A stretch of DNA of 64,000 nucleotides from positions 20,026,001-20,090,000 of the forward strand of contig OZ320315.1 in the NCBI GenBank assembly GCA_976226885.1, written 5' to 3'. Source of the stretch: Iphione sp. A-MEVVRFRX5 (Eukaryota). Position numbers and translations under genes: made by a program. Shown one piece after another: positions 1 through 60,100 of this stretch (position 1 is the first letter of the stretch; every line of letters starts with the position of its first letter). Below the pieces are notes generated by a model, which saw only the letters and a list, made by a program, of their open reading frames with translations, was not told where the DNA came from and did not search any database.

Positions 1-67
1 TGATCACACTCAACAGTGATCGCCTCCCAACAACGGATTACCACATGGTCTGAAGCAGCCCAGATCG

Positions 68-5733: not shown

Positions 5734-6047
5734 GGGAGTAATGCTCAGCATTATAAAGTTTATTCACTCCTGATAAACCCATTTGCAGAATATAACTCAT
5801 TAGCACATAAACATACAACATATGTAGTGAAGAATAATACTGGATTACACAAGGACATTAACCTCCACAGGGTTAAGTCATATAATACATCTCAGTAATG
5901 ACAGCCTGAATGAGCAACAACTCATCAGTACAGGTCATTACATGTTAACAAGTAGTGCTACAATACAAGGTTAATATCATTACTCATGAGCAAACACATA
6001 TTACAGCTCGAGCAAGAGTATCTGTCTTTTCTGCCAAGTCTGTAATT

Positions 6048-14988: not shown

Positions 14989-15006
14989 TACCCGGGTTCT
15001 CCACCA
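14989..15006 (-). promoter_or_regulatory. Primer binding site of G2, tRNA-Ala-like (copy 27552-27569)
   Basis: TGGTGGAGAACCCGGGTA one base after LTR end ...CATCACA; resembles the complement of tRNA-Ala 3' ends (..TCTCCACCA). Confidence 0.7.
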
Positions 15007-15007
15007 G

Positions 15008-28389: not shown

Positions 28390-29074
28390 TGGACCACATG
28401 GCCCCAAGTCTGGCCAGGGGGTATGTCCTAACAAAACACTGATACCAGTTCTGTCCCTACGACATAGGGGCCATGTGGAGTCTTAGTCTTTGAAGAAGAT
28501 GGTCAACCCGGACCCATGGCCACCTGGCTTCAGCCATCAGAACTCAGGGGAGTCCTCCAGGCAGGGGCCATCTGGAGTCTTGGCTTTAAAGTTAGTACTC
28601 TCATCGGGACCTTAGCTGCTTGACCCAGGCTCTCCGAAGTCAAGAGGGTCCCTCCAGATGGGGCTATCTGGAGTCTTGCCTTTGAAGTGAGTACTCTCAT
28701 CAGGACCATGGCCACCTGGTCTCTCTTCTCTGGAGTCAGGGGAGTCTCTCCAGATGGAGGCCATCTGGTTTCTCCCAGAGTCAGCGGAGTTCCTGCAGAT
28801 GAGGGCCATCTGGCCCGACAGTCGTTTGAAGTTCTATCTGCCAAGGTCACGGTCTGGCAGTTCTTTGAAGTGTGGACTCAAGGTGAAGGTCGAGCACTCC
28901 CTCCAAGTGCTGGTAGTCTTGGCGTCGCCCCTCGCGGGAATGTCACAAGGTGAAAGTCCTTCACCCCAAGGGCGTGAGGCATCAAGGTCAAGGTCGCCAC
29001 CCTGACCCTCAAAGAGTCTGGGAGCCACGACCAACTGTCGAGGGAAGGGGGTTATCCGGTTGTCTCCCATGCCA
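27571..29074 (-). repeat. Complete LTR-X (~1.5 kb), 5' LTR of G2
   Basis: TG...CA termini (TGGCA...CATCACA on minus). Both ends coincide with the ends of the diverged copy at 61214-63685. U3 repeats, three CCAAT boxes (~28228-28290), TATA-like ATATAAG ~28195, AATAAA at 27843-27848. Confidence 0.75.
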
Positions 29075-38434: not shown

Positions 38435-40833
38435 TAATGGAATAGAATAGAAAAGAATTTTATTCTGAAACATGGCCCTGGCAGGGCATTTTTACAGAAT
38501 TTTACAGAATTTTACAGAATGACTGGCTGGCTATTTTGCAGTTTTACATAAACATAAGGATGAATTGATACCAGCTGAAGATGTTAAAAGTCGTACATTG
38601 TTAGTGTGTGGATCTTGATGACATCTTTAAACACTTTACCTTTACCAATGCAGCAATACAATGCATCAAGATTATTCCAGTCTTTAACACCTTTGTAACA
38701 AACTGAATTTTTTACCTTATTCTTTTTTGGCTTTCTTAGGATAACCATAGGCCCTGCTGCATTTCTTGACTGAGTTTGTGGTCTTAACTGCAGTAGCCTG
38801 TTTGCTACCATTGAATTCACAACACATAATTGGAAAAAAGATCTTCATCTTGCTGTACTTTCAATATGATATAACAGGTGCAGTCGCTGGATAGATGATT
38901 CTGCTAGACCTCTTGCATTAGATTTAGCAATTATGCTCAGTGCATCATTTTGATGCAGTTTTGATAGCCTGATTTTTGAATTATTTTCTAGAAAAATTGT
39001 GCAGTAATCAAGATGAGGTCTAATAAAGGCACAATACATATTTAGCATGTCCTTCTCATTAAGGTGACTTCTTAACTTAAGAAGCACACCTACCTTTTGG
39101 ACTTGCTTTTTGACTGTTGCTTCCAATACTAGGTCAAATTTTAATTCACTGTCTAGTTTGATACCCAACTATCTATAGGAGGACACAAAATCAATCCTGT
39201 TATCATTTAAAGTAATACACTGCATAGTATCCACATGATCTTGTTGTGGCTTAATATGCCTGATATTTGTTTTAGTTGTATTTAATGGGATTAGATTTGC
39301 TCTACAGCATGTATTAAATTTTTGACAGGCATCTTGCAAATAAGTTTTTTTCATCCAGCGAGGTTACAACATCATTAATGAAGAGAGAGAATAAGAGGGG
39401 GCCCATAGTAGCACCCTAGGGGACCCCATGTTTATTGATCAGTAGTTTAGATTCTAAACCATTTACTTCACATTTCTGCCATCTGTCACTTAGATAGTCT
39501 AAAAATAGTTTTACACTACCTATTGAGAAATTCAATAAATATTTTTGTATTTGGCATCATTTTATGCATTCATAATATGGTTCAGTCTAAAGGAGATGGC
39601 CTCACGTGTTCCTCTATTTTTTCTGAACCCAAACTTATTAGTTGTCAATAAGTGGTTATTTTCTAAGTGATCATACAGTTGTTGAAACAGAAACCTTTGC
39701 AATATCTTGCATGGCAGTTGTAATATGGATTTTAGTCCGTAGTTGTCAACTTGATTTTTGTTACCAGATTTAAAAATGGGAACTACTCTTGCCATCTTCC
39801 ATTTACTAGGAATTTTGGCACAATCAATTATCAGATTTAGCAAGTGACAGAATTTTTTACTATTTAGACTAATATCATTCAGTTTTTTCTTTAAAAATTA
39901 GCTTCATGTACCTGTACTAGTCTTCTCACTTGATTTTTAAGGTGTTTGGCTATTCTGGTAGTATCCTCGTCACATCTTTCCTTAGCCTTTTTTAGAAAAT
40001 AATTTTTTTAGTCTGATCATTTTTAGCAAGCCAGTTTTGATCCATGAATTGTTCCCTGGAGGAGTTATGTTTTTCATGATAATAGGGCATTCACTATCTA
40101 GAATTCCATTGTAAGTATCATGTAGTATTTCCCATGAAATATTGGGGTCTTTGGAATCATAGTAGTTATACCAGTTGATATTCTCAAGTTTGCTTTTGAT
40201 ATTCTGTTTCACCTTGTCATCAACCCTCCTAAAATTGATTTCTACCTTCTGAGGCACAGTTAGATTTTTACACATCTTCTTTACTACAAAGGTCATACTG
40301 TGGTCAGAGATACAACTATCTAACACACGGCTATGTTGTATGAACCCACAGTTAGTTGCTATAAGATCAATGGCTGTGCTGCTATGTTGAGTCATTCTGG
40401 TGGCGTTCTTAATGTAATTCTTCAGCCCCAACAGATTTAAGGCAGTAATCATTTTAATAGTAGCTGGATCTTTGGATTTAAATAAATTAATGTTGATATC
40501 CCCAAGAAGATATACTTCTTTTCTTTGATTGATTGTTTTAGTTGCAGTTTCAATGTTACTGATAAAAAATGTTACTGAACTGGCTGATGGATGGTAGATT
40601 TTGTTAAGAACTAGTGATTTCATTTTTCCAGGCTTAATATGTAATACCTGCATTTCAAGATCATTTGTGATTTGATTTAGATTCTTGAAATTATCTATTA
40701 CTTCATAATCCTCCTGGATATATGTAATTAAACCTCCGCCAGATTTGCTTAAAGCTCTTGCCCTATCCAGTCTAAGGTGGTTGTAGTTTAGTATCTTAAC
40801 CAGATGACCTTTTTCACAGATGTATACTGCCAT
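38435..40833 (-). mobile_element. Decayed CR1/L2-like LINE (EN 39982-40833, RT 38584-39843, 3' tail)
   Basis: DR..SGGGLITYI, LLGDININL, IDLI, ISDHS; WKMARVVPIFKSG, RPHLDYC, WNNL; AATAAA plus (TTCTA)n tail at 38435-38464. Confidence 0.85.
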
Positions 40834-42302
40834 CTATTATGCAGATATACTTTCATTAATGGAATTCTTGTGTTGGCCCCTATTTCATATAGTTTGTTAA
40901 GGATAACTTGGTGGTTGACAGAATCAAAGGCTTTTTGAAAATCAACAAAGCCACCTGCAACCTTATAATTTTCATTAAGTGAATCATGGATGTAGCAAAC
41001 GACAGCATGTACAGCAGAGTCAGTACCATTACCGCTGCGAAACCCATACTGTGAGTCACAGATTAACTTGTTGTCCTCCAAGTATGTCATTAATCTCACA
41101 TAAATTATTTTTTCAAAAATCTTCGCTGGAAACGGCAACTGACTTATTGGACGATAATTATTGATATCTGTTCTGAGTCCTGATTTATGTAAAGGTGTTA
41201 TCTTTGCAGTGGTCCAATCTGATGGTAATCTTTTTTCTTCGAATATCTTATTCATAAGGTCCGTCATTTCAAATAAACAGGTTAGATATGCCTCCTTTAA
41301 TAAATATATGTGAATTTCACAGATCAAACTAGCCTTATTCGTTGACAAAAATAACATATCCTCCTTTACTTCCAAATCACGTATTGCAGGCCATTGCAGT
41401 CTTGACATTGTTAAGCGATTATGCGCTGATTGATACTCAACATATGAGAGTTGTTGTGCTACTCTGCTGCCTATTTCACAGAAGAATTTATTGAATTCAT
41501 TTGACGCTTTCTCTGGATCCAATCAAGTGCCATTAATTCCATTTTCAATGCTCCTACGTCCATTTTTGAGAAATCCCTGTAAGAGATCTTTGCATATGAT
41601 ATTTAATTTTCTGCATAGCCGGTAAAACAATTTCAATCATGTTGTGATCACTTAGTGAACTCTCTAATACTCTAGAGAAAATCCGCAGCTTTTTACTAAC
41701 AATACATAAATCAATTATAGTTCTGGTATTCACAGTCTCCATTGTAGTATCGTTAATCATTTGCAAATAGTCATTTACCATACAAAATTCTTTTAAAGCA
41801 ACCTTAACGGCTGAAGGCTTATTCCAGTTTATGTTCATATAACCAACGTAGATTTGTGTACTTCCTGGACATAGTGTTAATACCGCATCAGTAGTCTGCT
41901 GTAAAACTGATATAAATTTATCTACTTTCCCTTTAGGTGGATGATATACACCAATAATACATAGATTCCAACTGTCTTAGAATGTATCTTTTATACAATG
42001 AGTTCAATGTCATCTGTACTATGAGCATATTCAGATAAAATTGTTACGTCTTGCATTAAACCCAGCTTTATATATATTAATATACACCCTCCCTTAGAAC
42101 ATTCCCTATCTTGTCTTACAATAACATATCCACTTATACTCAAAATACTATTAGGTATAGCAGTACTTAACCAGGATTCTATCAGAATAAGTATATCGGG
42201 TTGTGATGTACACAGCAAGGTTTCAATATCAAGAATCTTAACTCTCACACCGCGAATGTTCAAGTGATAAACCAGCATACCGGTCTTGCATGACTCCATC
42301 AT
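40788..42302 (-). mobile_element. Another decayed CR1/L2-like LINE fragment (EN 41554-42302, RT N-terminal part 40788-41522)
   Basis: HLNIRG, LIESWL, RQDRECSKGGCILIY, LSDHN; AKITPLHKSG..NYRPISQL..FVDFQKAFDSVNH. Confidence 0.85.
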
Positions 42303-42354: not shown

Positions 42355-42760
42355 AATAGGATAAGTCGTGGTGCCAAGATCCGATGTAGTGTGCTCGGTA
42401 ACCCTTGTACTGGTAGTAAGTATACAAAGTCGTGGTGCCAAGGTTTGGTAAGATGTACTCAGTGACCTCAGTATTGCAGTTGAATAGGATAATGTAGAAT
42501 AGGATAAGTCGTGGTGCCAAGATCCGATGTAGTGTGCTCGGTAACCCTTGTACTGGTAGTAAGTATACAAAGTCGTGGTGCCAAGGTTTGGTAAGATGTA
42601 CTCAATGACCTCAGCATTGCAGTGGAATAGGATAAGTCGTGGTGCCATGGCCAGATGTAGTGTACTTGGTAACCCTGGTACTGGTAATAAGTATACAAAG
42701 TCTAGGTGCCACGGTTTGGTAAGATGTACTCAATGATCTCAGCATTGCAGTTGAATAGGC
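42355..42760. repeat. Tandem repeat, 3 units of 128-143 bp, each with two GTCGTGGTGCCAAG-like subrepeats
   Basis: Unit starts at 42365, 42508 and 42636. Confidence 0.85.
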
Positions 42761-42763
42761 TGT

Positions 42764-43620
42764 GTGTCATGTAACACACGGAAATTGAAGAGGCAATTGA
42801 GACCTCTTCAGGTGATGGAAAGCATTACATTTCCATTTCAAAAGTTGGCAGTTGATACGTGTGGACCGTACCAGCAATCCAAAGCCGGGTACGTGTATCT
42901 CCTGACCCTTATCAATGTCTATTCCGGGTGGCCTGAGATGTTCCCCATGAAAACCAAGCAGGCCCAGACATTCGTGACAATTTTCTTGAACGAGGTGATA
43001 CCTCATCATGGATGTCCCATAGTGCTGTTATCCGACAATCGGACCGAATTCGTGAATGAGGTAATGAAGGAAATTTGTCGAAAGTTCGTTGTTGCTCGCA
43101 TCACCACTAGCCCGTACCACCCAGCTTGGAACAGTAAGGTTGAGCGGATGCACCGGGTATGGAATGACATCATAGCGAAATTGACTGGAGGGGATATGGC
43201 ACATTCAGAAAGGGCTATACCATCTGCTTTGTTGGCTCTACGGATGAGCACTAATGAGTCAACTAAGCACACACCCTTTTACCTCCTTCATGCCAGGGAC
43301 CCTATATTGCCACTGGGCATGTTGCTTCAACCCCAAGTAAGATATTACAGGGAGTAGCATCATCAAATAGTCCTACAACGCCATCATCAGACTATGACTG
43401 TGGTCCGACGGAATGTCGCTGTGGGGCGACAGCGCATGAAAAAATATCATGACCAATGGGCCACAGATGTGTCCTTTGAAGTGGGAGACCCTGTGTATGT
43501 ACAGAACCCCATTCGGCGTCATAAGGCCGATATTAGGTGGCAACCTTAAGGATGCATAGTAGAAAAGATCCCCGTCAATTTCGTTGCGAAGGATCAGGTA
43601 ACGGGGAAATTGGCGAAGGT
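42764..43620 (+). pseudogene. pol: G3 integrase
   Basis: CxxC, KLAVDTCGP, LLSDNRTEF, TSPYHPAWNSKVERMHR, TKHTPFYLLHARDP; stops after 43357. Confidence 0.85.
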
Positions 43621-46064: not shown

Positions 46065-46778
46065 TGTAAACTAATGTTTGTTGTATTTCCCACTTGGAAT
46101 AAAACCAGCTATGGTCTGCTTCAAAACTGTCTTAGTGTTGCTGCCTTTGTGTCACTAGCTGCTATAGATGCTCAACCCTTAAGGTAATCCAAGTGGGTTA
46201 GGTCCCTTGAGCTTCACAGAAGAATAAGATCCACAAGTGAGTCCAATTCCAAACTGATTTTATTGGCCACACAGGGCTCATATTTATACTCATACTCAGG
46301 GTCATGTGACTGGTTCAACAAGAAACATAATAACAATCCCTGGAAGGGAAATGCTACAGTGCTCCCTTAAGGCTTCTAAAAATAGCCCAGATCAGATACA
46401 TTATATCTACCATGTGCTAGCAGGCTAAAAATAGAATGCTCCTAGCCAATGAGATCCTAGAAATTTTTAACATCTGGGTTTGGGTAACCCCAAGCTAGTT
46501 TGGGTGTCCCCAAACGGCACAGCAGGACCCCAGTCCAGGGGCCAGAGAGTACAGCTAACTTTGTAAGACATTTGGGTATCCCCAAACGACACAGCAGGTC
46601 CCCAGTACAGGGGCCAGAGAGTACAGCTAACTTTACAAGACATTTGGGTATCCCCAAACGACACAGCAGGTCCCCAGTACAGGGGCCAGAGAGTACAGCT
46701 AACTTTACAAGACATTTGGGTGTCCCCAAACGGCGCAGTAGGTCCCCAGTACAGGGGCCAGAGAGTACACTAACCACA
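46065..46778 (-). repeat. G4 3' LTR
   Basis: TGTGGTTAG...GTTTACA on minus; CCAAT ~46446; TATAAA 46288-46283; AATAAA 46264-46259. Confidence 0.97.
46499..46769. repeat. 72-bp tandem repeat (~3.7 units) in G4 U3; same at 56848-57118
   Basis: Unit starts 46499, 46571, 46643, 46715; each begins TTTGGG-N4-CCCAAA. Confidence 0.95.
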
Positions 46779-46790
46779 CTCTCCCCACCT
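46779..46790 (-). promoter_or_regulatory. G4 polypurine tract
   Basis: AGGTGGGGAGAG immediately 5' of the 3' LTR. Confidence 0.85.
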
Positions 46791-47126
46791 TAATCCCCCC
46801 TACTGGGGGAGATACGAGCACAACGTCCATCCCAGGGGGGTAGGCGACACTACCACCCTGAGAGGTCCCTACTTGCAATATGCGACACCGGGTATTTCCA
46901 CTAGTCACCAAAACATCTTGAGTACACATTTCTAAGACTTATGCAGGTAATTCCCAAATAGCCGTCTCATCACAGTAACACAAGTACATCTGGTAATGTT
47001 TCTTTTTGTGGGATACAGTTCCCTTCACTTGTCTTGAGAACATCTTAAGTAACATCCTTAACACTTACTCAGTTAATTGCCGGGTACACATCTTTAACAC
47101 TCTTTTACAATATCAGAGAGGACACC

Positions 47127-47658: not shown

Positions 47659-49275
47659 CTAGATCACCATGGCTCGCGCCTTCTTTCCCTTTACCCCTAC
47701 CTTGCCCTTCGAACTCCTCTTTCCCGTCTGACTGGGAACCAGTTCTGCTCCGATGGTGGGTGTCCACACACTACTCGCCCCCAAACAAACTTGGCGGGGA
47801 GAAGTCCCTATGCAGATGTCATGGAGGGTGGGGGTATGCTGGTGTTGCCAGGCCCGGACCGCTTCCGCCTCCTTGGCCCAGGCTTCGGGGTTGAGGCGGG
47901 GCTGGTCCGAGTCCCATGCTGGGCCGGGCTGCAGGTCCTTTATCAGTTCCTCTGCCCCCTCCACGGCTCGGTTACTTTTTTCAGTGATTGTCTCCCGGTT
48001 TCCCCACTCCCCCTGCCGAGGGAGGGCGAGACCCGGCAGTAGGAGCGCGGGCCGCTGTCGTAGGGGCCCCAGGAGGTCTTCAGGTAGCTCCCCTTCATCC
48101 TCCACCATGTGGAGGACCCAGGCCAGGGAGGAACAAGCGATGAAACGTTGTTCGGGTCGCATCTGTTGCCACCGGGGGGGCGGCCAGGTAATCTTCTCGG
48201 GTAGGCGGACGGCGGCTGGCGCCGATGGATGTCGCATCGTGGCTTTAAGATGGGGCATCAGCCCATCCAAGTAGGCCCGTACCCGGTCGGCGGTGGGAGC
48301 CACTCGGTCCGGAGGGAGTAGGCGACACACCAACCGCGACAGTCGTCCTTCGGGAAGAGGCGGGGGGGGCACCGGGGTAGGCCCGGCTAGCAGTGGGTCT
48401 CCAGGCGCTCCCCCTCCAGCCGTGCTTCGCTCCTCGTCAGCCGCCATCTCCTCCGCGTCCTGAAGCATTCGAGCGGCCACAGAGGCAGCCTCTGAGGTGT
48501 CCCAGGATACGGTGTCTAGGTAGGGTGTGAGGGGCGGGTTCCCCCAGGAGACAGCCCCACTGTCATCGTCGCTGTCGTCGTCCGGCGCCGTGGTCATCAC
48601 CGGCTCCAGTGCCGGCGTTTGGGATGGTCCGGGGCCCCCCTCACTTGCCCAAGAGGGACCAGGCGTGGGGTCATGTGGGACCTGTTCGCCCTCTATCCCC
48701 TGTGCAGCGATCCCCTCCCGTGGAGTTGCCTCGGGCACCTCGGCCCCCGTGTGAGGGGCTGTGGGTCCCCCCAGTGAGGTCGGGAGGTTCTCCAGGCTGG
48801 TGATGTGACACATTGGAATGGCTGCCCGAGGGTGTGTGGCCAGCATACTCTCAACCTGCCCGCGGTCTAGTATACGTCCCTGTAGGCGGGCAGCCCGAGC
48901 CCGGACAATCGTTTGGGACACCCCATCCCTGGGTACCTCGATGTCTCCGTCAGGGGTCTCCTTGTACAACAGTCTGTAGGGTCGGTCTAAGAGCCCTAGT
49001 CCCTCCACCCAGGGATGGTGTTTGCGGACGTGTGCCAGCCAGGCATACATATCTTTGATTCGGCTAGGGCAATAAACACAGAGCCACCTGTGTTGACGTT
49101 TGCCCTGATGGTAATCCCTCAGGTGCCTCTCTAGGGACTCCCCCCCGCAGAAAAAACGTTTTTTAGGTGTGCATAATTCACAAAGGATAGCCCCCTCCGG
49201 GAGACACATGCCCTTCTTCAGGATGCGGGGCCGCTTAGGGGGGGAAGGGTTTACACCTGTCCCGTCTTGGGCCAT
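47659..49275 (-). CDS. G4 accessory ORF: 538-aa protein with two C2H2 zinc fingers, NLS and acidic/Pro-rich region
   Basis: C32-x2-C35..F42-x5-L48-x2-H51-x4-H56 and canonical C66-x2-C69-x12-H82-x3-H86; PPKRPRILKK; DDDSDDDS; gacATGG context; uninterrupted frame. Confidence 0.8.
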   Translation of the reverse strand: MAQDGTGVNPSPPKRPRILKKGMCLPEGAILCELCTPKKRFFCGGESLERHLRDYHQGKRQHRWLCVYCPSRIKDMYAWLAHVRKHHPWVEGLGLLDRPYRLLYKETPDGDIEVPRDGVSQTIVRARAARLQGRILDRGQVESMLATHPRAAIPMCHITSLENLPTSLGGPTAPHTGAEVPEATPREGIAAQGIEGEQVPHDPTPGPSWASEGGPGPSQTPALEPVMTTAPDDDSDDDSGAVSWGNPPLTPYLDTVSWDTSEAASVAARMLQDAEEMAADEERSTAGGGAPGDPLLAGPTPVPPPPLPEGRLSRLVCRLLPPDRVAPTADRVRAYLDGLMPHLKATMRHPSAPAAVRLPEKITWPPPRWQQMRPEQRFIACSSLAWVLHMVEDEGELPEDLLGPLRQRPALLLPGLALPRQGEWGNRETITEKSNRAVEGAEELIKDLQPGPAWDSDQPRLNPEAWAKEAEAVRAWQHQHTPTLHDICIGTSPRQVCLGASSVWTPTIGAELVPSQTGKRSSKGKVGVKGKKARAMVI

Positions 49276-49322: not shown

Positions 49323-50156
49323 GTTGGGTTCACCCAAACTGGGGCTAACCTCGTCCGCTTCGTAGCCCGTTCCTGCGTCTTCTACAAGGAGCGTTTTCGT
49401 TCTCCTCCTCCTTTTTGCGTTCACCCAAACTGGGGCTAACCTTGTCTGCTTCGTAGCCCGTTCCTGCGTCTTCTACAAGGGGTGTTTTCGTTCTCCTCTT
49501 CCTTTTTGCGTACACCCAAACGTCTCAAATGCGTACTAGCCCCGTTCTTATTTTGGGCATCCCCAAACTGTAGCGATCTTTCGCATCCCGTCGGTACTCT
49601 CTTCGTGTCGACGCTGTGATAGTCTCGAACCGGATGTTTTGGTTGGCGACTTCCGGTTGCTGGAATACTCTCGAACCCAATTTTCCTTTTGCGTCTCCCC
49701 AAACGGGGGGTCGGCCGGTAGGATTTTCCGTGCTAGTTTCCACTGTTTCTTGCCGTTTTCGTCACCCTTCGTAATAATCCAGAGCTTGGGTACACACAAA
49801 CCAACGTCAACATCCCATCCAGTAAAGTCTTCGTAAACTTTTGGGTGTACGCAGACCAACAACATCGTCTTCTCGTTTGGGTGTTCGCAAAACGATCTTT
49901 TGTCCGTCATCCACAAGTTTTCGTACTTATTCCCCGGTTTATTATCATATTTATCACCCTAGTGCTGGGGTACACGCGAACCAACGTCGTCTTCCCATCT
50001 CGTCAGGTTTTCGGGCTCATTTGGGTATACGCAGACCCGCGACCTCGTCTTCTCGTTTGGGTGTTCGCAAGACGATCATCCTCGTTTGGGTGTTCGCAAA
50101 ACGACCATTCGCTCGTCGTCTATAAATTTGGCGTTGCGCGTAGCCCGCCGTCAGTC
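49323..50156. promoter_or_regulatory. Putative bidirectional internal promoter: 12 copies of TTTG[GC]G-N4-C[GC]CAAA, inverted ETS-like pair, TATA and Inr on +
   Basis: Sites at 49323, 49414, 49505, 49552, 49688, 49785, 49840, 49876, 49965, 50020, 50056, 50085. 91-bp tandem repeat at 49323-49521. CCGGATGT 49630 and ACTTCCGG 49649. TATAAA 50121, TCAGTC 50151. Confidence 0.7.
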
Positions 50157-50203
50157 GTTGCCTGGCTCTCCTGGTATACACACTGTGGGTTGTTCATCCT
50201 GAC

Positions 50204-50396
50204 ATGGAGTTCATAAGCTACCCTCCACCAGACCTGCCTGTGGGATACCCGCCCATGGAGGATAGGTAGGCTTCTTACTGAGGAGGTTGTTTGACAGTTG
50301 CTCCAGGTGTTGTGATCCTTGACAGTTCTAGCTTCATCCTGGTCTTCTGGAAAAGGTGAGTATCCATTCAGGTTACCTTGTTTGCATTCTGGCTGG

Positions 50397-50442
<46 letters not shown>

Positions 50443-51052
50443 TGTTGTAACCTGTTCCTCTTCCTCCTCTTCCAGGACTGCCACCCCAGATGCCTACTTC
50501 CGGTATGTGGACGTGGGTACTCCGGGACCCACAGTCCGCATATACGGAACGTTTCAACTCCTCTCTACAGAGCTGTTCGTTCCATCCCCGGGCCACGTGA
50601 GGATCCACTGCCCGGATCACATCCTTGATTTGAGCGTACACCCAAGCGGGTCACCTTCACCTCCGCCGCCGCCGGTTCACGACCCTGAGTGGCAGGACCC
50701 GCGCTGGGAGACGGTCTCACCTGACCTTGGTGAACGGGAGGTGGCCGAGACGCTGTTGAGTCTCTCCGATGATTATGCTGGTGATTCTTCATCCCCTTCG
50801 CTCACCTCCAGCCGGTTGGACCCATGGGACTCCGATCAGTTGTCGGCCCTACTCGGTCCCTCCCCGTCACCTCCGCAGTCACCATCCTCGTCTAGCGAAG
50901 AGTCCCGGCGCGACTCGCCCGGCCGCTGGACCCCCCTCCTGGGGCGTTCCTACCTCGATGACCTGCCCCCGCAGGTGTTGGAGTCTGCCTATCCCGGCTT
51001 GGAGCGAGGGGATTGCCCCTTCTTCCCGATCATGATCTCCGATGAAGAGTGA
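50204..51052 (+). CDS. G4 antisense spliced ORF (exons 50204-50265 and 50476-51052; 212 aa), mostly disordered Ser/Pro/acidic
   Basis: gacATGG start; donor AG|GTAGGC at 50266; branch-like GTAAC 50447; pyrimidine tract; CAG|G at 50475. The phase-2 join is in frame. AATAAA at 51153. Splicing is predicted, not observed. Confidence 0.65.
50398..50441. repeat. T44 homopolymer (A44 on the element sense strand)
   Basis: Directly visible; lies inside the predicted intron. Confidence 0.9.
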
Positions 51053-51152
51053 ACATTGACATTTCTGGAGTTGGACAGTTATAGTAATTTTCCTGATGCC
51101 GGAACTGTTTATCGTTAATGATGTTCACTGCCAGTCTTGCCATGTTTTTAGC

Positions 51153-51158
51153 AATAAA
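51153..51158 (+). terminator. Polyadenylation signal for the antisense gene
   Basis: AATAAA 100 nt after the stop, followed by GT/T-rich sequence. Confidence 0.6.
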
Positions 51159-51943
51159 ATGTCTCCTGTTTCAGCCTTAATTCCGGCCTTTTCATTTCGT
51201 TCAGTCCTAATTATCTTCATAATCATTTTCATAATTATCTTCATAATTATCTTCGATTCTGTCATGGCTAATCCGTAATTCGCTGGCTTTGTCATAACTG
51301 TTAACACTAAAGTTACATGCATCCGAGTAATGTTCTGCTGAGTGAGAGGTAATGACTCCTACCCTACTGCAGGCTGCTGTAGACGTCGAGAGGACAAGAG
51401 TCCATCCCAGTCTACCCACTTCTCCAAGAGGACATGGACCGCAGCTCGGTATCTTCCCTCTTCCGCCTGTGGACATTTCGAGCTCCGCTGGCTCCAGGGT
51501 GTCCACTCTCCCTTGCTTTCGCGCGTCTCCAGGATGCTCATCCTCCTTCCCGTAGGCTTTCGAAGCGTCTCCAGGATGTCCGTCCTCCCCAGGAACTTTT
51601 CGGACACTGTGGTCCCCGGATGTCCTTCCTCCTGCTGAGGTCCTTTTGGCGATTCCTCACCCAGGTGTACCTCGCTCACCTCCCGGACTTTTCGAGACCT
51701 TCCAGGTTGCCTACCCCTCAGGGACTTTTTGGGCATTACTGCCCCAGGATGTCCCCCCCTCCTCTGGGAGCTTTGTGGGCGGTTTCCCGCCCCAGGCGAT
51801 CTCCCCTCTTCCTCATGAGACTTTTCGAGCGCGCCAGGAGGTCCAACCCCCTTCTTCAGGGCCCTGCCCTCGGGTCCACCTTGGACCTTGCTGCCAAGAG
51901 GCTACCTCCGCCTCTCCTTTTCCTTTCTCCTCCAGTCTACTCC

Positions 51944-54900
51944 CTACGACCTCTCCGGGTCGGGTACGTTGACTTCACTCCCCCTGTCTGGTGGAGATTT
52001 CGCGTTTTTCTTCTTCCAGGTCATGATCCACCGGGGAACCTCCTTCTTGAGGAAAGGCCGCAACCGGTTCCGGTGGACCACCTTCGCCCTAGCTTGACGG
52101 GATCGCTTGATCACCGCCCTCGCATCGTCCAGCTTCTCAGTCACCAACCAGGGGCCTGTCCACGGGAAATGGGTTTTAGGGCTGTGGCCTCGTGGCGGTT
52201 GAGCTTCATGCAGCCAGACCACATCTCCGGCTTCCAGCGGGCTCCCCTTCATCCTGCGGTCGTATGCCCTTGCCTGGACCCGAGCCGCCCGCCCGAGCCT
52301 GGTCCGCACTATCCGGTACGCATGGCGCAAGCGTCTTCTCGTATGCTCCACCCATTCTGGGAGGGGCATCTCACTCGGGTCACCCATGGGCAGACCATCC
52401 AGTGCGTGAACGGGTAGTAATACCTCACGCCCGAACATCAAAAAGTTTGGTGTAAATCCGGTGCTAGCCTGTGGCGAAGCCCTATAAGCCATCATCAGGT
52501 AAGGTAGGGCTTGATCCCATTCGTCGGACGCCTCATAGCAGTGGGCTTTCACCATCCTTCCCAAAGTGCGGAAACTCCTCTCGATATACCCGTCACTTTG
52601 AGGGTGGCGTGGTGTGGTCCGGGTCTTCTTGATGTCTAAGAAGTTACAGAGTGCCAGGATGATCTCGCTGCAAAAATTCGTCCCCTGGTCACTATGAAGC
52701 TCTTGGAAACATCCATACCTGGTGATCACTTCTTCCATCAACACCTCCGCTACTCTGGTTGCTTTCTGATCGGGCAGGGGAAAGGCCTCTAGCCACTTGG
52801 TGAAGTGATCCCCCACCATAAGGACATATCGGTTTCCCCGCCGGGTCTCTGGCAGTGGGCCGGCTACGTCGATAGACCATCTCTCCATGGGTTCGCCCGA
52901 GATGTATGTCCGGAGTGCGGTCTGCGGCCTCCGCGGATTCTGGTTGAGCAGAGCGCAGTGGCAGCTTGTACACCACCCCTCTATGTCGTCTCGCATCCTC
53001 GGCCAGTAATACGCGAGTCCCACCAGATGAGTTGTCCTGTCGGCTGCCAGGTGTGCCCCTGCCTGACCGCTGTGAACTTCCTGGAAAGCTCGTTGCCGGA
53101 ACTCTGTGGGAAGCACCACTTGTAGCCGAGAGGGGTCACCCTCGAAACCCACCCATTTCCGGTGCAAGAGGCCCCCTTGGGCCGTCAGGCGGCCCCATTG
53201 TCGCCAGAGGCTCTTACAGGCGGCTGACAGGGGTGCCACCTGTTCCCAGGCTGGCTGAGTAGGGTCAGCTTCTAGCAGCCGTAGGATGGGGCCAATGTCA
53301 TCATCGCGGAGCTGGGCTTGTCGAAGCTCCGGGTGTGATGAGACCTGTGCTTGGGCTCTGGTCACGGCGGCAACCTTGGCTGGTACTTCTTCATCCTCCT
53401 GATGGGTCTGCTTGCATTGGCGACATGGCTTGCGGGAAAGAGCATCCGCGTTAGCGTTGTTTTTCCCCGCCCTATGTTCTAACCGGAGGTTGTACTGACC
53501 CACTCGTTCTATCCACCTGGCGAGCTGCCCCTCCGGGTCCTTGATTCGACTCAGCCAACTAACGGCTCCATTATCTGTCCGTACCGTCACCTGTTGCCCG
53601 TAGATGTAAAAGTGAAAGTGCTTCAGGGCAGCAACCACGGCTAACAGCTCCCGTCGCATGACACAGTACCTTCTTTCTGAGGCACTCAAGCTCCGACTGA
53701 AGTAGGCGAGCACCACCTCACGGTTGTCTTGCTGTTGTGCTAGCACCGCCCCCAGGCCTACGTTACTGGCGTCCGTGTCGAGCAGGTAGCGCCCCTCCAT
53801 TCGTGGATATCCCAACACCGGACTGGACGTCAGGGCCTCTTTCAGCTGGCGGAAGGCTTCTTCTTGAGGTGCGCCCCAAGCAAACTCGGCCTTCGAGCTA
53901 GTTAATGGGTTCAGCGGGGCAGCCAGATTTGCGAAGTGAGGCACATACCTGCGGTAGTAGGAGCATATCCCAAGGAAGGCCCTCACCCCCGTTGGGCAGG
54001 TGGGCACAGGCCACTCCCGGATAGCCCGGGTCTTAGCTGGGTCAGTGGCCACTCCCTCCTTCGAAACTATATGTCCTAGGAAGCCTATCTCCTGTAGGAA
54101 CAGCTGACATTTCGTCGGTTTCAGTTTCAATCCGGCTGTTTCTAGACGGGACAACACTCGTTCCAGCCGGTCCAAGGTCTCGTCGAACTCCCGTCCGAAA
54201 ACCAAGATGTCGTCGAGGTAGACGAGACATTGTTCCCAAGTCAGCCCCCTCAGCACGGTGTCCATTAAGCGTTCGAAGGTAGCTGGTGCGTTTATCAAGC
54301 CGAAAGGCATTACTGTGAATTCGTATAATCCGACAGAAGTAGAGAAAGCTGTCTTCTCCTGGTCTTCTGGGTGCATCTTGACCTGCCAATACCCCGACGC
54401 CAGGTCAAGAGAACAGAAGTACCGAGCCCCAGCGAGGGTACTTAGAGAGTCATCGATCCTAGGGAGAGGATAGGCGTCAACTTTGGTCTTCTGGTTTAGC
54501 TTGCGGTAGTCGACGCAAAACCGGGTGGTTCCATCTTTCTTCCTCACCATCACAACCGGGCTAGACCAGGGACTCCTACTTTCGACGATCACCCCCGCTG
54601 TCTTCATTTCTTCTACTAAGCGACGCTCCTCCTGACGCTTAGCCAGCGGGAGACGCCGCGGAGGTTGTTTGATGGGATGGGGATCGTCAGTGAAGATGCG
54701 ATGTTGAGTCCAGTCAGTATGCCCCAGGTCATGCCGGCCCTTGGAGAAAACCTGACCATGCCTCTCCAGCACTATACCCAGGCGTTCTTGTTGTTCTGAT
54801 GTCAGAGTGTGCCGGGTGGCTTCTACCAAGTTTTTCACATTAGCTGGCTGTTCCTCCCGTATCAGACAAACCCTCCCGGTGGGGGCCACTGACTCACTCT

Positions 54901-55627
54901 TACAGGGCCGGGCGGGCACTCCCAGGGCTACCTTGGTGCCTTGGCTTATAAAAACCTCCACTTCTCCTACATTCCACACAGGGAGTACATCTTGCACGAC
55001 ACACCGGATGCTAATCAATCCCTTCTCGATCTGAGCTTCTACCAGGCCCTCCACCATCACAGGATGGTGTTCTGATAGGCAAAGGGGCACCAGGGTCCCT
55101 TCTCCGGGTGGGACAGTGATGTCACAGGCAGTGCATACCTCTCCCTTGAGGGTAGTGATACCCCTGCACCTGGATATTCCTGGTTTGAACACAACCTCCT
55201 GTTTAGCCAGATTGATAACCGCCTGGTGTTGGCATAGAAAGTCACTCCCCAATATGCCATCCTCCTCTATTTCAGCTATGATGAAAGGGTGCTGGAATTG
55301 CCTCCCTGCTATGCTGATCTCACAAACTTGTTGCCCCTGAGTGGGAATGATGTGGCCCCCCGCTCCTGCAATACGAGTCAGTGGTTCTTCACCCCCCAGG
55401 CCAGGGACCACACGGGGATTCACAATGGATACTTCAGCTCCCGTATCAATCAATAGCAACAGTTCAGTTCCATTCAGGCTTACCTTTAGCCGTGGTCCCT
55501 GACCTGGTTCCATTGTGGTCTCCGTATGCGTAATCCCAGTCGAACCCTCCTGGCCTATTGGGTTGACTGCGTCCCGTTTCCCTGTAGTGTGGGGCAATCC
55601 CGCTTGAAGTGGCCTGGTTGACCGCAC
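51944..55627 (-). CDS. pol: G4 Pol polyprotein (PR-RT-RNase H-INT), intact
   Basis: LIDTGAEVS; SPWSSPVVMV..YLDDILV; LDTDASNVGLG..ELLAVV..RTDN; H..H..C..C, DVAGP, SDQG, PQSDGYIERSFRT, PWTGPW; 1227 codons open. Confidence 0.97.
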   Translation of the reverse strand: MRSTRPLQAGLPHTTGKRDAVNPIGQEGSTGITHTETTMEPGQGPRLKVSLNGTELLLLIDTGAEVSIVNPRVVPGLGGEEPLTRIAGAGGHIIPTQGQQVCEISIAGRQFQHPFIIAEIEEDGILGSDFLCQHQAVINLAKQEVVFKPGISRCRGITTLKGEVCTACDITVPPGEGTLVPLCLSEHHPVMVEGLVEAQIEKGLISIRCVVQDVLPVWNVGEVEVFISQGTKVALGVPARPCKSESVAPTGRVCLIREEQPANVKNLVEATRHTLTSEQQERLGIVLERHGQVFSKGRHDLGHTDWTQHRIFTDDPHPIKQPPRRLPLAKRQEERRLVEEMKTAGVIVESRSPWSSPVVMVRKKDGTTRFCVDYRKLNQKTKVDAYPLPRIDDSLSTLAGARYFCSLDLASGYWQVKMHPEDQEKTAFSTSVGLYEFTVMPFGLINAPATFERLMDTVLRGLTWEQCLVYLDDILVFGREFDETLDRLERVLSRLETAGLKLKPTKCQLFLQEIGFLGHIVSKEGVATDPAKTRAIREWPVPTCPTGVRAFLGICSYYRRYVPHFANLAAPLNPLTSSKAEFAWGAPQEEAFRQLKEALTSSPVLGYPRMEGRYLLDTDASNVGLGAVLAQQQDNREVVLAYFSRSLSASERRYCVMRRELLAVVAALKHFHFYIYGQQVTVRTDNGAVSWLSRIKDPEGQLARWIERVGQYNLRLEHRAGKNNANADALSRKPCRQCKQTHQEDEEVPAKVAAVTRAQAQVSSHPELRQAQLRDDDIGPILRLLEADPTQPAWEQVAPLSAACKSLWRQWGRLTAQGGLLHRKWVGFEGDPSRLQVVLPTEFRQRAFQEVHSGQAGAHLAADRTTHLVGLAYYWPRMRDDIEGWCTSCHCALLNQNPRRPQTALRTYISGEPMERWSIDVAGPLPETRRGNRYVLMVGDHFTKWLEAFPLPDQKATRVAEVLMEEVITRYGCFQELHSDQGTNFCSEIILALCNFLDIKKTRTTPRHPQSDGYIERSFRTLGRMVKAHCYEASDEWDQALPYLMMAYRASPQASTGFTPNFLMFGREVLLPVHALDGLPMGDPSEMPLPEWVEHTRRRLRHAYRIVRTRLGRAARVQARAYDRRMKGSPLEAGDVVWLHEAQPPRGHSPKTHFPWTGPWLVTEKLDDARAVIKRSRQARAKVVHRNRLRPFLKKEVPRWIMTWKKKNAKSPPDRGSEVNVPDPERS

Positions 55628-56385
55628 TGGAAGCAGTTGTTATGCCTGGGCTTCCTGTTTCTTGCCTCTTCCTTACTCCGAAGATCTTCCCGGATCTTGG
55701 CCAGCTCTTGCGTCAGTTCTTCCAAGGGCTTCCTCCACTCTGGCGTTGCTGAGGGCTGTACCACTTGAATCTTCCTGGCCGCGAAGCGCTCTTGCGTCTC
55801 CACCACCTGGATTGCCGTGTCCAAAGTGGTGCACTTGGCCTCCAAGCACTTAAGGTGTAGGGTGTCCGATAGGGCTCGTTGGAAAGCAGCCACAGCAGCC
55901 AGCTCGCGCGTCTCCCCACTAACATCCGGGTATGCGCTCCGGACCAGTCGGCGGACTCTGTCTGCTAGATCCCTGGTATCCTCATCCCGTTGCCGCTTGA
56001 TACTGGACAGCTTTTGCATAGCCACCACACGATCACGACGGCGGCCGAACCTCCTCTCCAAAGCTGCCACTCGGGAGTTGAAATCCCTCTTGTCCTCCGT
56101 CGGTAAATCTCCATAGTACATCCTGGCCGGGCCCGTCAGAGACAGCGTGAGGGCCGAACACTTAGTGCCCTCGTTCCAATGACATGCATCGGCCCACTCG
56201 GTGAACTGATTTATCCAGCTGTCCCAGTCGACAACTTTTCCGTCGAAGCGTTCTGGCTTCATGGTGTTCATCTTGAGTGGTTCCTCCGGTGCAATCTCAA
56301 AGTGCTCAACTTCTTCCTCTTCCGGAGTAGGACTAGGAATCCGGAGTGAGACTTCCTCATCCACTGTCAAGTAGTTGGTTGCCAT
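55555..56385 (-). CDS. gag: G4 Gag (276 aa from MATNYL) with a C-terminal CCHC knuckle
   Basis: KPERFDG..WDSWINQF, L..LTGPA, QRDEDTRDLADRVRRL, CFQCGQPGHFKRDC. Confidence 0.95.
   Translation of the reverse strand: MATNYLTVDEEVSLRIPSPTPEEEEVEHFEIAPEEPLKMNTMKPERFDGKVVDWDSWINQFTEWADACHWNEGTKCSALTLSLTGPARMYYGDLPTEDKRDFNSRVAALERRFGRRRDRVVAMQKLSSIKRQRDEDTRDLADRVRRLVRSAYPDVSGETRELAAVAAFQRALSDTLHLKCLEAKCTTLDTAIQVVETQERFAARKIQVVQPSATPEWRKPLEELTQELAKIREDLRSKEEARNRKPRHNNCFQCGQPGHFKRDCPTLQGNGTQSTQ
55576..55582 (-). promoter_or_regulatory. -1 ribosomal frameshift slippery site G GGA AAC
   Basis: In the gag frame caG GGA AAC (Q-G-N); a -1 shift enters the pol frame (GGG AAA CGG), five codons before the gag stop. 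Confidence 0.8.
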
Positions 56386-56394: not shown

Positions 56395-56412
56395 ATCCCA
56401 CCGCTGCCACCA
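56395..56412 (-). promoter_or_regulatory. G4 primer binding site, tRNA-Leu
   Basis: TGGTGGCAGCGGTGGGAT, complement of the eukaryotic tRNA-Leu 3' end ATCCCACCGCTGCCACCA, one base after the LTR. Confidence 0.9.
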
Positions 56413-56413
56413 G

Positions 56414-57127
56414 TGTAAACTAATGTTTGTTGTATTTCCCACTTGGAATAAAACCAGCTATGGTCTGCTTCAAAACTGTCTTAGTGTTGCTGCCTTTGTG
56501 TCACTAGCTGCTATAGATGCTCAACCCTTAAGGTAATCCAAGTGGGTTAGGTCCCTTGAGCTTCACAGAAGAATAAGATCCACAAGTGAGTCCAATTCCA
56601 AACTGATTTTATTGGCCACACAGGGCTCATATTTATACTCATACTCAGGGTCATGTGACTGGTTCAACAAGAAACATAATAACAATCCCTGGAAGGGAAA
56701 TGCTACAGTGCTCCCTTAAGGCTTCTAAAAATAGCCCAGATCAGATACATTATATCTACCATGTGCTAGCAGGCTAAAAATAGAATGCTCCTAGCCAATG
56801 AGATCCTAGAAATTTTTAACATCTGGGTTTGGGTAACCCCAAGCTAGTTTGGGTGTCCCCAAACGGCACAGCAGGACCCCAGTCCAGGGGCCAGAGAGTA
56901 CAGCTAACTTTGTAAGACATTTGGGTATCCCCAAACGACACAGCAGGTCCCCAGTACAGGGGCCAGAGAGTACAGCTAACTTTACAAGACATTTGGGTAT
57001 CCCCAAACGACACAGCAGGTCCCCAGTACAGGGGCCAGAGAGTACAGCTAACTTTACAAGACATTTGGGTGTCCCCAAACGGCGCAGTAGGTCCCCAGTA
57101 CAGGGGCCAGAGAGTACACTAACCACA
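56414..57127 (-). repeat. G4 5' LTR
   Basis: Same sequence as 46065-46778. Confidence 0.97.
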
Positions 57128-60100
57128 TTACTTTCATTGGTCAATTGTTCCATGCTTTACACCATCTTCAAATAATGTCTTCCTAACAATGTTACTCCTA
57201 GTTTAAAAAAGTTTCACATTAATTTCACAACCTTTCCTAGTTTTTGTCTTGTATTTGATTGGGAGTTTGTTATTGAAAACCATTCAATGTGTTAGTTAAA
57301 TAGCTGATATGCACATACAATGATCTGTTGTATCAATAGGATAGACAATTATGGTTGGCCTAAAACACATTTGGCACATTTGTTATAAACCTTTCTGGGT
57401 TTTCTTATTTTCACTTTAGATTCATTACAAATGGCCAGTCTGAAGTAATCTATTAATGGATGAATGTACATTTTGAATAGGTTTATGTGTATCTCTAAGG
57501 GAAGGAAAGATCTAAGTTTGCTTAGGTTATATGTAGACCTCCACATCTTAGAAACTGTTTTGTTCTACACATGATAGTTTATCATTCAGAGTATATGCCA
57601 GTATATTGAGAGCTCTAGATAGCTTGAGGATATTGCCATTGTATGTAATAGTTGAAGCATCACAACTGTGGATTCCATTGATACAAAAACTACTTTTTTC
57701 ATTGCTAAGAGAAAGATTATTACTTTTGCACCACTCCATAATGTATTTGTACGTCAAGCATATGTCTTCTTCCAGTTTATCTATATCCTCTCCATTTGCA
57801 ACACACATTATATTGTCCACATACATTGTTACTTTTGTATGATTGAGGGAGTGAAAACATACGTCATTTATTAATAGCGAAGATCTAAGGGAACCAAAGA
57901 TGCTCCCCTGTGGATTGCCAATTGTTTCAGAAAATTTTGATGATTTCATACCATTCACATGCAAATATTGTTCTCTACCATCAAAATAACCTTTAACAAG
58001 GCCAATATATTCTTTTTAGCTCCCTCTACCTGTAATACCTTTAGGATGATAGCACAATTCAGCAAATTGAAAGCTTTAGTAAGATCAAATGCTACAACTG
58101 CTACTACTTTTCTTTGGACTATACCATCACAGATATTTAATAGAATTTCCCTTGAGGCAGATTTGGTTAAGCGTACCTTTAAAACCCATGTTGACTTGGT
58201 GACTAAAAACCTATCCTGAAAAGCTCATCATTAAGTATATCACATAAAAGTTTTCAAATAATTTTCCAGATAAGGGGAGCATACTGACTGGCCTATAGTT
58301 ACTAAGAAGCTCTTTTTTACCCTTCTTGTCAACTGGTATAATCCTAGCAGTTTTAGAACTCCTGACATATGTCCCTTTATCTATGATAGCCTTGAATAGT
58401 CTTACCATGTATGGAGCTAGTATGAGGAGACTGTCTCTAAGAGTTGAGCTCTCAAGCTCAGGTATATTACTGCATTTGTAACAGTCAATTGTAAATTGTA
58501 CTTACTGCTTTTACTGCATCTGCAATCATGATGCTTCTTATTGATATGTTGTCATTGCCATACTGGGTTCTGCAACACTGCTGCATTGCCATTTCATTTG
58601 CAATATTTTTAAGAGTATTTCTGAAAAATGAATCAGATTTTCCAGGTTGTTTTGGGGTTTTTAGTGTTATTCTTAAGTCTGTTATGAAAAATCTCTGATA
58701 AGACATCTGTAGTTCAATCTTAACAATTTTATCCAGATATTTATAAGTACATGTATTGTTGGCATCATGATCATTGTGTATATTTGCTTTTTCAAATAAA
58801 TATCTCCTATCTTTTATTAATTTGATCAATGCTTTGTCTATGTTTACCTTTCTTTTTGGCCTATTATTCTTATTGGTGAAATGTTTTGGGCAGATTTCAT
58901 CGTAGGAATAAAGAATGATATTCCCAGAGTTGATCTGATGTAGTCGGCAGTTTTTGTCCACTTTTACCTTCAACAATGCTTTTAAATATTCGATGGGGCT
59001 ATTTTGCTTTGTCTCTCATTATATATTTCTGGTCTGGAGAGTCAACAATCCTTTGACCTGTTTTATACTCAATCGACACTCCGAAGTGATCACTATACGA
59101 AGTCTCCACTACTCTAACATTATTTAGCACATAACTATTAGTGAACATTTGATCACTGATTTTTTGGCTGTTAACCATAGTGCTATGCCCAATTTGTTGT
59201 AAAAGGTTATACATATGCAACATACTGGTGGGCTTCCTTACCCGTGGATTGTCTGTGTTCCAGCCCATATTAAAGTCACCAGTTAGTAGTACAAGCCTCT
59301 TTTGGTGAGGCTGCCACCTCTTGAGAAGTTTGTAAACACTGCAAAAAATTTGGCAATAGAACCATCTGGTGGTTGATACAGTAACATAATAATCAATGGT
59401 TTCAGTTTGCTGTATGAGACCTTTACTGTAACCAGCTCAAATAAATCAGAGTTTATACAAGCATCATCAACCAATTCACATAAGCAGTTTTCTTTGACAT
59501 AGATCAATAGCCTAAGACTAGAACTTTTTTCATGGGATATCCTGTCCTGTCTTATGATAGTGTATCAATTGATGCTAATGTTTGTGTCTGGGGTTTTACT
59601 ACTGAGTCATGTTTCAGTTAAACATGTAGCAAAAGGCGATGACCAAAGGATGTCATCCTTGAAAATTTGAAACATTTTATAGATGCTACTAACATTACAC
59701 TGATATAATTATACAGTATCTCATAGTGAGTTGTCAAATTGTGGAAAGAAGAACTACAAGTGAGTTGAAGCGAAAATAATATTCGATGAGGAAATCCTTA
59801 ATTTCCTTCAACCATCGATCAGTCACGAAACCTGGAAGCTAATCATCCGAACTGATGAGCTCATATCTAAAAATAACATTAAAACCTATTACCTCATTCA
59901 CAACTGGGCATGTATCAGGTGTGCTTAATCAGTTCTGCTTGCTTATTATTTGCACCCAACTGTTGAGTTTTCCAACGCTGATATTTAGATCTCACTGATG
60001 TTTAGAGTTCATATTGTTAATTTGAAAGCCATGAACAGGTAAAAAGCCATCATTGTGGAAGTGAGGTTTGTACAGAACCCGAAAAATATCATACATTTGC

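Follow-up and report, generated by a model that had tools for sequence, protein, structure and literature searches.

Antisense open reading frames situated between pol and the 3' LTR of retrotransposons, termed aORF-3R, have been described in maize Grande (gene23), rice RIRE2, Silene Retand and bean PvRetro13 (PMC7264820), and plant antisense additional ORFs are also treated in the accessible part of PMC11963269. An own upstream promoter has been demonstrated for gene23, and the function of the antisense accessory ORFs in LTR elements is open even in plants (PMC7264820). In Drosophila, according to the available text of PMC11952523, the sORF1 and sORF2 genes of the MDG1/412 elements are in sense orientation, upstream of gag, and sORF2 is a membrane protein.

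The gene analysed in this work lies in the window, i.e. in the whole 64,000-nucleotide stretch of Iphione sp. DNA under study. By its position, orientation and conservation it is of the aORF-3R kind, but it is not of the TRP28 type. The similarities are the Ty3/Gypsy host, the slot and the orientation, the retention in most copies, the orphan or poorly known protein for which a regulatory role is proposed, and an own upstream promoter, which was shown for gene23 and is only predicted here. The differences are that we are dealing with an animal element, that the gene has a predicted intron with two competing donors, that its palindromes are common with the LTR, and that it stands head-to-head with a sense zinc-finger ORF. 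Moreover, Pfam finds no TRP28 (Transposase_28, PF04195) or SMC domain, in which the gene differs from those of Retand and Grande. Another additional antisense gene, brtn, was reportedly described by Zhao et al. in 2011 in Boty of Botrytis cinerea; Boty is also a Ty3/Gypsy element, but a fungal one. The MDG1/412 sORF1 and sORF2 are comparable in that they too are small accessory genes of animal Gypsy elements without env, as far as the available text of PMC11952523 goes, whereas the present gene is antisense, is located 3' of pol and codes for no membrane segment.

It is also useful to compare the locus to the Tas/Bet genes of foamy viruses. At the level of sequence, both systems have the same response element in the U3 part of the LTR and at an internal promoter (this is unclear in two of our lineages, G and I). 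Here, however, env is lacking, the second gene is a separate one in antisense orientation, and no likeness in sequence or fold was found. On our reading the antisense gene would work like the foamy virus Tas/Bet cassette, by analogy and not by homology (PMC13220597, accessible part). In the literature, searched without Repbase, subscription papers and supplements, we found no animal Gypsy element with a spliced antisense protein gene; the available text of a survey of annelid LTR elements mentions antisense ORFs in its introduction only (PMC8220671), and the word 'antisense' is absent from a survey of metazoan Gypsy elements (PMC13524379). New features are the palindromes before the TATA box that are common with the LTR, the combination of a weak coding donor with a strong non-productive one, and an orphan, lysine-poor protein that ends in a tail resembling a SUMO-interacting motif (SIM).

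The host element and its layout

The antisense gene resides in an intact Ty3/Gypsy LTR retrotransposon of ~11 kb on the minus strand (Table 1), which has LTRs with TG...CA ends, a target-site duplication (4 bp), a primer binding site, a polypurine tract, and gag followed by pol in the order PR-RT-RH-IN. Both LTRs are identical at 714 of 714 positions, and the element is young. The nearest pol proteins, 44-63% identical, are from arthropod, amphibian and fish elements, some of which are labelled 412-like. There is no env frame in the element, and no match to Tas or Bet was found with Pfam or in the PDB.

Table 1. Positions of the features of the element and of its antisense gene in the window
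Feature	Position	Strand	Remarks
5' LTR	56414..57127	-	714 bp, TG...CA; five palindromes in U3
5' LTR promoter	56637	-	TATAAAT-33 nt-TCAGTT
Primer binding site (PBS)	56395..56412	-	presumably tRNA-Leu-like
gag	55555..56385	-	CCHC knuckle
pol, PR-RT-RH-IN	51944..55639	-	open over 1231 codons; Pfam
15-nt inverted-repeat motif GAGGAYGRRCAYCCY, two copies	51531..51587	-	between pol and antisense gene
AATAAA of antisense gene	51153..51158	+	sole + strand hexamer between 49100 and 52500
Exon 2, coding part	50476..51052	+	191 open codons, TGA 51050-51052
Predicted phase-2 intron, weak donor D1	50266..50475	+	contains D2 (50356), CAGTT motifs, T44 tract 50398-50441
Exon 1, coding part	50204..50265	+	gacATGG; 20 codons + 2 nt, phase 2
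Predicted core promoter	50121..50156	+	TATAAAT; initiator TCAGTC at 50151, A at 50153
Intergenic region ORF3/antisense gene	49323..50100	.	ten 16-bp imperfect palindromes
Sense ORF3, 538 aa	47659..49275	-	two C2H2-like fingers
Polypurine tract	46779-46800	-	directly upstream of 3' LTR
3' LTR	46065..46778	-	five palindromes

From pol to the 3' LTR the order is a 0.8-kb spacer, the antisense gene, the palindrome-rich intergenic region and the sense ORF3, the antisense gene and ORF3 being arranged head-to-head. The motif GAGGAYGRRCAYCCY is found in eight of the nine lineage representatives described below; lineage C is without the motif and keeps the gene. The possibility that a sense ORF is conserved in the spacer that separates the antisense gene from pol was rejected because the frames swap among the lineages.

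The N-terminal domain of ORF3, with both fingers, is confidently folded, its linker is disordered, and the C-terminal part is helical and conserved. The helix of the first finger has an invariant Arg. In a structure search no match to ORF3 reached E <= 0.001 or Z >= 5, and there is a weak structural resemblance to DNA-bound zinc fingers (E about 1-5). Motifs of the form (V/I)-(I/V)-D-L-T, which we take to belong to the SIM class, are present in 6 of the 15 ORF3 types.

The antisense gene and its splice donors

The preliminary description, made from the letters of the window, had claimed a two-exon transcription unit on the plus strand, and the TATAAA, initiator, ATG, donors, acceptor, stop codon and AATAAA are all where it had placed them, as are the three in-frame stops inside the intron. 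The coding part of exon 1 (62 nt) ends with TAG/GTAGGC at 50265/50266 and contains a conserved YPP-x-x-D peptide, the acceptor TTCCAG/G at 50475/50476 is also in phase 2, and the predicted CDS of 639 nt corresponds to 212 aa plus the stop. A TATA box followed by an initiator after 21-26 nt is found three times in the 11-kb element, namely in both LTR promoters and at the antisense site, and one more match in the window (30874) is outside the element. The TATA-Inr spacing is 33 nt in the LTR promoters and 32 nt in the antisense promoter, and since the LTR promoters share the pattern they serve as an internal positive control for its geometry. The absence of the pattern from 200 dinucleotide shuffles, as well as the recurrence of the signals in nine lineages, bears out the earlier contention that so many signals are unlikely by chance. 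The unit was also said to converge on pol. It is indeed directed at pol, but 786 nt remain between its AATAAA and the pol stop, so the antisense unit does not overlap pol. The neighbour that matters is the sense zinc-finger ORF3, with which the gene has a common palindrome-rich intergenic region, and not pol.

A search of the 1.18-Gb genome with the exon-2 protein gave at least 187 matches (150 of the 1556 candidates were scored); among the matches listed, about 35 are near full length at 89-100% and many are at 43-55%, and a diverged exon-2 query finds another large lineage. We examined 30 close copies (the window itself included), 60 diverged loci picked by their antisense protein and 20 loci picked by ORF3 alone. 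The close copies were the 30 best by protein score when 35 full-length matches existed, and this choice lowers dN somewhat. The loci fall into nine lineages in one genome, with exon-2 products that are 37-59% identical to that of the window copy; the pol of the first five lineages is 66-71% identical to the window.

The conservation of the signals in sister copies, on which the preliminary description had let its claim depend, was checked over 90 loci and the signals are kept in most of them. TATA and initiator are 32-35 nt apart in 86 loci, a phase-2 acceptor is found in 86, while 81 have a phase-2 first exon (59, 62, 89 or 92 nt) and 80 have a poly(A) hexamer at most 160 nt from the stop; some of the loci that miss signals are truncated or rearranged copies, and three are frameshifted. 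The long T tract also recurs in the nine lineages. An antisense homolog is present on the opposite strand in 17 of the 20 loci picked by ORF3, and the remaining 3 keep the antisense promoter without exon 2 and integrase. The first exon is an 89-nt phase-2 exon in 14 of these 20 loci, the donor being mutated in one, and the first-exon layout differs in lineage G (3 loci). The three copies without exon 2 are internally deleted and still have ORF3 and the promoter; with the three frameshifted ones, which are related copies, they show that the gene is dispensable in cis.

The 191-codon frame is intact in 28 of the 30 close copies, dN/dS against the window copy is 0.04-0.15, and the shared variants of exon 2 are 56.5 synonymous versus 25.5 non-synonymous (p 3e-15 against neutrality). 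Each of the remaining five frames of the exon-2 segment is interrupted by 3-9 stops; the segment overlaps no sense frame, and its three reverse frames contain 4-8 stops. Comparison across lineages gives 75-94% identity at codon position 2 and 25-45% at position 3. Exon 1 is constrained as well (12 synonymous versus 3 non-synonymous shared variants), and it ends in all lineages with a YPP/FPP peptide, fixed a few residues before donor 1, which indicates that donor 1 is the coding donor. The tree of the antisense protein matches the integrase tree (row L090 of this comparison is misframed and is an artefact), and ORF3 diversifies inside the lineages; the antisense gene has been inherited together with the integrase. 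Conservation and selection strongly support the antisense two-exon protein-coding unit that had been proposed, and we have very little doubt that the sequences describe a real coding gene, under purifying selection and with conserved exon boundaries.

The second donor (D2, AAG/GTGAGT at 50356) is in phase 2 in the window copy, as the preliminary description had noted, but it is not the equivalent in-frame alternative that it seemed to be, because stops precede it: two of the three intron stops, at codons 22 and 26, are located before D2. The D1-D2 distance is 94 nt in 18 of the 30 close copies, 93 nt in 4 and 90 nt in 4, and over the nine lineages it is 90-183 nt, in all three frames; on account of these distances D2 was rejected as an in-frame alternative, together with a coding middle exon. 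An in-frame stop follows directly after D1 or at most 4 codons on, which is 86-180 nt or more before D2, and as in-frame stops precede D2 in every lineage, it cannot yield the long protein. D2 has the better consensus in all nine lineages, with 8-9 of 9 matching positions as compared to 5-7 of 9 in D1. The segment between the donors is 88% conserved in close copies versus 79% in the 5' leader. In this segment CAGTT is present in each of the nine lineages, and in 6 of them it is significant by itself; the T tract begins 10-42 nt past D2. A hairpin hiding D1 was also considered and is unsupported (z about 0 in 11 copies). According to the 50-55 nt rule, a stop codon that far before a junction marks an mRNA for decay. 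The mRNA made with D2 would be decay-prone, its stop codon preceding the junction by 86-180 nt, and would give a peptide of 21-31 aa, and only the weak D1 would lead to the full-length protein. Since the strong donor is conserved though it kills the product, it would best be read as a regulated switch, and we give about even chances to such a splice gate controlling the output of the antisense protein.

The intergenic palindromes have the form TTTG(G/C)G-N4-C(G/C)CAAA, and the last one ends 20 nt before the antisense TATA. The window contains 18 matches to TTG(G/C)G-N4-C(G/C)CAA, all of them in the LTRs or in the intergenic region, while 0.03 are expected by shuffling. Each lineage has a private 16-bp palindrome around a GG-NN-CC core, present in both the LTR and the intergenic region; the half sites of other lineages are CTGYGG, CTACGG, TCGTGG, TYGGGG, TGGCGG and TTGGGK. 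In seven of the nine lineages a palindrome ends 16-26 nt ahead of the TATA; there is no clear palindrome near the TATA in lineage G, and a weak one in lineage I. In lineages B1 and C the palindrome and the antisense protein are constant and ORF3 is split into several divergent types. The palindrome type tracks the lineage as a whole, so the binding protein is not revealed by trees. The LTR-like geometry of the TATA and initiator, together with a palindrome about 20 nt before the TATA, suggests that the antisense promoter is switched together with the LTR, and this would most likely take place through the adjacent zinc-finger ORF3.

The predicted protein

The antisense protein is, as far as its sequence tells, an orphan and largely disordered. 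A beta-rich domain of 56 residues (50477-50644) with 13 invariant positions, 3 Arg and no Lys is followed by a helix after an SP(D/E) motif, by a Ser/Pro/acidic linker that tolerates large indels, and by a DPW-type motif; the C-terminal block (51023-51049) ends with GD-x3-P-(I/V)-x-(I/L/V)-(S/D/E)-D. The pI is 4.3 and the acidic linker is studded with aromatic residues. The protein has no basic cluster for nuclear import and no Arg-rich stretch, its alignment has no conserved Cys pattern, and no membrane segment is seen in the exon-2 parts of 18 proteins (top 19-residue hydropathy 0.6-1.2). Neither the window protein nor 17 relatives had a Pfam match at E <= 1, bar one weak DUF, and the PDB gave no match for the antisense protein. 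In sets of sequences that contain few unannotated animal repeats, a search of 5.8 billion proteins, restricted to near lengths, found no homolog of the antisense alignment or of ORF3, 1.84 billion representatives gave one unrelated repeat protein only, and metagenome and viral contigs gave no homolog. The exon-2 model has a pLDDT of 37, too poor for a fold search. The beta domain has a pepsin-like appearance; this candidate was dropped, having no PDB or Pfam support.

A SIM consists of a four-residue core with at least three hydrophobic residues, plus an acidic or Ser flank (PMC12751080, accessible part). A SIM-like tail, I-x-(I/L/V)-(S/D/E)-D, is found in 18 of 18 aligned proteins. In 13 of them (IMISD, IVLSD, IVVSD, VVISD, IMVDD, ILVEDD) the tail agrees with this loose motif, in its parallel form and with an acidic/CK2-type flank, and the other 5, which have I-E-V-S-D with only two aliphatic core residues, agree less well. 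The genome yielded no whole SUMO reading frame.

Another feature of the protein is the near-absence of lysine. The exon-2 products of the nine lineage representatives have 1 lysine in 2157 residues, where 23 are expected, and 118 arginines, so that K:R is 1:118 as opposed to 86:180 in gag, pol and ORF3. Lysine is absent from 71 of 74 full-length copies, and all 18 aligned proteins, with 0-1 Lys in 191-278 residues and 7-20 Arg, show the pattern of a lysine desert. Such deserts are typical of disordered proteins of the ubiquitin system and of some viral proteins, and base composition is a known confounder (PMC10169902 and PMC13696103, respectively, in their accessible parts). The deficit becomes smaller under the controls: K:N is 1:18 and the comparison with other purine-ending codons gives p 0.01, the lineages not being independent; in one shifted frame of this DNA there are just 4 AAR triplets, the ORF3 linker is lysine-poor too (0-3), and the difference between E-to-K (1/40) and D-to-N (9/101) is not significant. 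Taken together, there is no more than moderate support in the sequences for an avoidance of lysine beyond composition. ICP0 of HSV-1, a viral protein that counters silencing and bears a SIM (PMC3174244), and the lysine-desert protein Slx5 (PMC10169902, PMC13696103) are likewise disordered and lysine-poor and have a SIM-like motif with an acidic/Ser flank, so far as the available parts of these sources describe them, but the antisense protein has no RING or ligase domain and a single, terminal motif; the likeness is one of motif and not of homology.

Possible functions of the antisense gene

The placement of the gene on the opposite strand hides both its intron and its poly(A) signal in the genomic RNA and lets them persist through reverse transcription. 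On the reading that we prefer, the gene, under its own promoter and gated by splicing, would make a non-enzymatic adaptor that shields the element from SUMO/ubiquitin-dependent silencing by the host. The small beta domain and the short motifs, the SIM-like tail last, would interact with a ubiquitin ligase or with silencing factors that are SUMOylated, and the near-absence of lysine would allow the adaptor itself to escape modification. We consider it rather probable that the gene codes for a co-regulated nuclear regulator. The chain as a whole falls somewhat short of an even chance, and the SUMO/ubiquitin counter-silencing adaptor, as suggested by the protein motifs, is a tentative proposal that we rate slightly lower still.

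The same features could belong to a negative-feedback brake, comparable to Bet of foamy viruses or to the antisense protein of HTLV, which limits a burst: switched on with the LTR, it would recruit SUMO-dependent repressors or titrate ORF3. The palindromes common with the LTR and the own predicted promoter are in agreement with a brake, the SIM-like tail could equally serve repression, and Bet, in the accessible part of PMC13220597, suppresses the internal promoter and has its level set by splicing. The three deleted copies that have ORF3 and no exon 2 also fit the loss of a brake, but they lost pol in the same stretch. The data are neutral as to the direction of the effect, and the strong purifying selection in young, spreading lineages is more simply explained by a mobility benefit to each copy; we regard such a brake as unlikely. 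Still less probable is that the antisense protein itself is a dimeric reader of the palindromes, i.e. an acidic, Tas-like transactivator driving its own promoter. The place of the palindrome 16-26 nt before the TATA in seven of the nine lineages, the constancy of palindrome and protein in B1 and C while ORF3 diverges, and the acidic linker with its aromatics speak for it, yet the pI of 4.3, the 56-residue domain with its mere three Arg and without Lys, and the lack of a basic cluster speak against it, and it is ORF3 that has the C2H2-like fingers, the weak likeness to DNA-bound zinc fingers and the invariant Arg.

Two further readings, both of which we hold to be improbable, place the function at the level of RNA. 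The protein might have a post-transcriptional role, Rev/CERV-like or as an assembly cofactor of the genomic RNA, perhaps via the GAGGAYGRRCAYCCY motif that is kept in 8 of 9 lineages, and a retrotransposon export protein does exist in Cer1 of C. elegans, according to the available part of PMC10309623; on the other hand the protein is acidic, without an Arg-rich stretch, and lineage C keeps the gene without the motif. Alternatively the working product might be the antisense RNA, acting as dsRNA or by interference with the sense transcript, with the D2 isoform as the main one and the protein as secondary. This would explain why, in each of the nine lineages, the donor with the best consensus is non-productive and why the D1-D2 segment (88%) is better conserved than the 5' leader (79%), and micropia has non-coding antisense RNAs (PMC7264820). 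However, a dN/dS near 0.1 and the retention of frame and peptide motifs across indels need a selected protein, and RNA and protein roles can coexist. Finally, the signals could have arisen by chance on the reverse strand of a GC-rich segment of the retrotransposon without any gene, which the lack of a database homolog might suggest. We find this scarcely credible, as it is largely refuted by the codon-position bias, found where no sense frame overlaps, and by the splice phase that is conserved over nine lineages.

Returning to the adaptor, a bolder and rather doubtful version is that this env-less clade runs a two-gene cassette like a complex retrovirus. ORF3 would be the zinc-finger reader that, by lineage-private operators, turns on both the LTR and the antisense gene, and the latter, gated by splicing, would supply an adaptor without lysine that binds SUMO, belongs to a new family and disarms the silencing of transposons by the host. 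Few counter-silencing proteins in animals are encoded by elements, and here a single genome offers nine diverged young lineages and hundreds of copies with clear exon boundaries and a testable splice choice, in which the operator sites common with the LTR and the protein motifs point to a pathway. The antisense gene is missed by standard repeat annotation and ORF calling, and it shows how an element that replicates through RNA is able to harbour a complete Pol II gene with its intron.

The first exon and donor region in other lineages

The antisense gene has two predicted donors, the weak coding donor (D1) and the stronger donor (D2). Lineage B1 (L031-L048) has a clear internal acceptor between the two donors, and the inter-donor segment is duplicated in 3 of 16 copies; its inclusion would introduce a stop. 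In lineage G (L092, L098, L102) the antisense first exon looks split by an additional intron, i.e. an 86-nt phase-2 exon is followed, in two of the three copies, by an in-frame 90-nt exon.

ORF3, the sense zinc-finger frame

The N-terminal two-finger domain of ORF3 has a confident predicted fold (pLDDT 80-94), and a structure search with the predicted model found no close match to it. Several divergent ORF3 types occur inside a single pol/antisense lineage. In several lineages a CAG lies a short way 5' of the ORF3 ATG, which suggests that ORF3 may be spliced.

Sequences around the element

The inverted duplication contains another, decayed Gypsy element and no homolog of the antisense gene, and its sequence is also present in additional direct copies. 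The LINE-like and unrelated integrase fragments border the element on its flanks. A Pfam scan gave no match for the Cys-rich frame.

Features of the window
Feature	Position	Strand	Remark
ORF3	47659-49275	-	N-terminal two-finger domain; relatives in set A3
Inverted duplication, ~9 kb	3211-12163; 15825-24773		97-99% identity
Direct copies of its sequence	12207-15884; 24772-28447
Candidate adenovirus/Polinton-type cysteine protease frame	20-652	+	by eye
Candidate Cys-rich fusion-protein-like frame	1034-1990	+	by eye
LINE-like endonuclease/RT fragments and unrelated integrase fragment	39982-41522 (-); 42755-43357 (+); 57548-59015 (-)
15-nt inverted-repeat motif GAGGAYGRRCAYCCY	51531-51587		also L036, L046, L068, L091, L092, L096, L107

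Deleted copies and a motif beyond the antisense gene

Three elements with an internal deletion (L095, L100, L101) lack exon 2 and the integrase and retain ORF3, the palindromes, the antisense promoter and the beginning of exon 1. Three related copies that lie next to each other on one contig (L080-L082) carry the same two frameshifts in their antisense gene and are probably duplicates of a single decayed insertion. The inverted-repeat motif is found in eight of the nine lineages, in 1-3 copies on the genomic strand, 440-890 nt beyond the antisense stop, and is a candidate RNA or DNA element.
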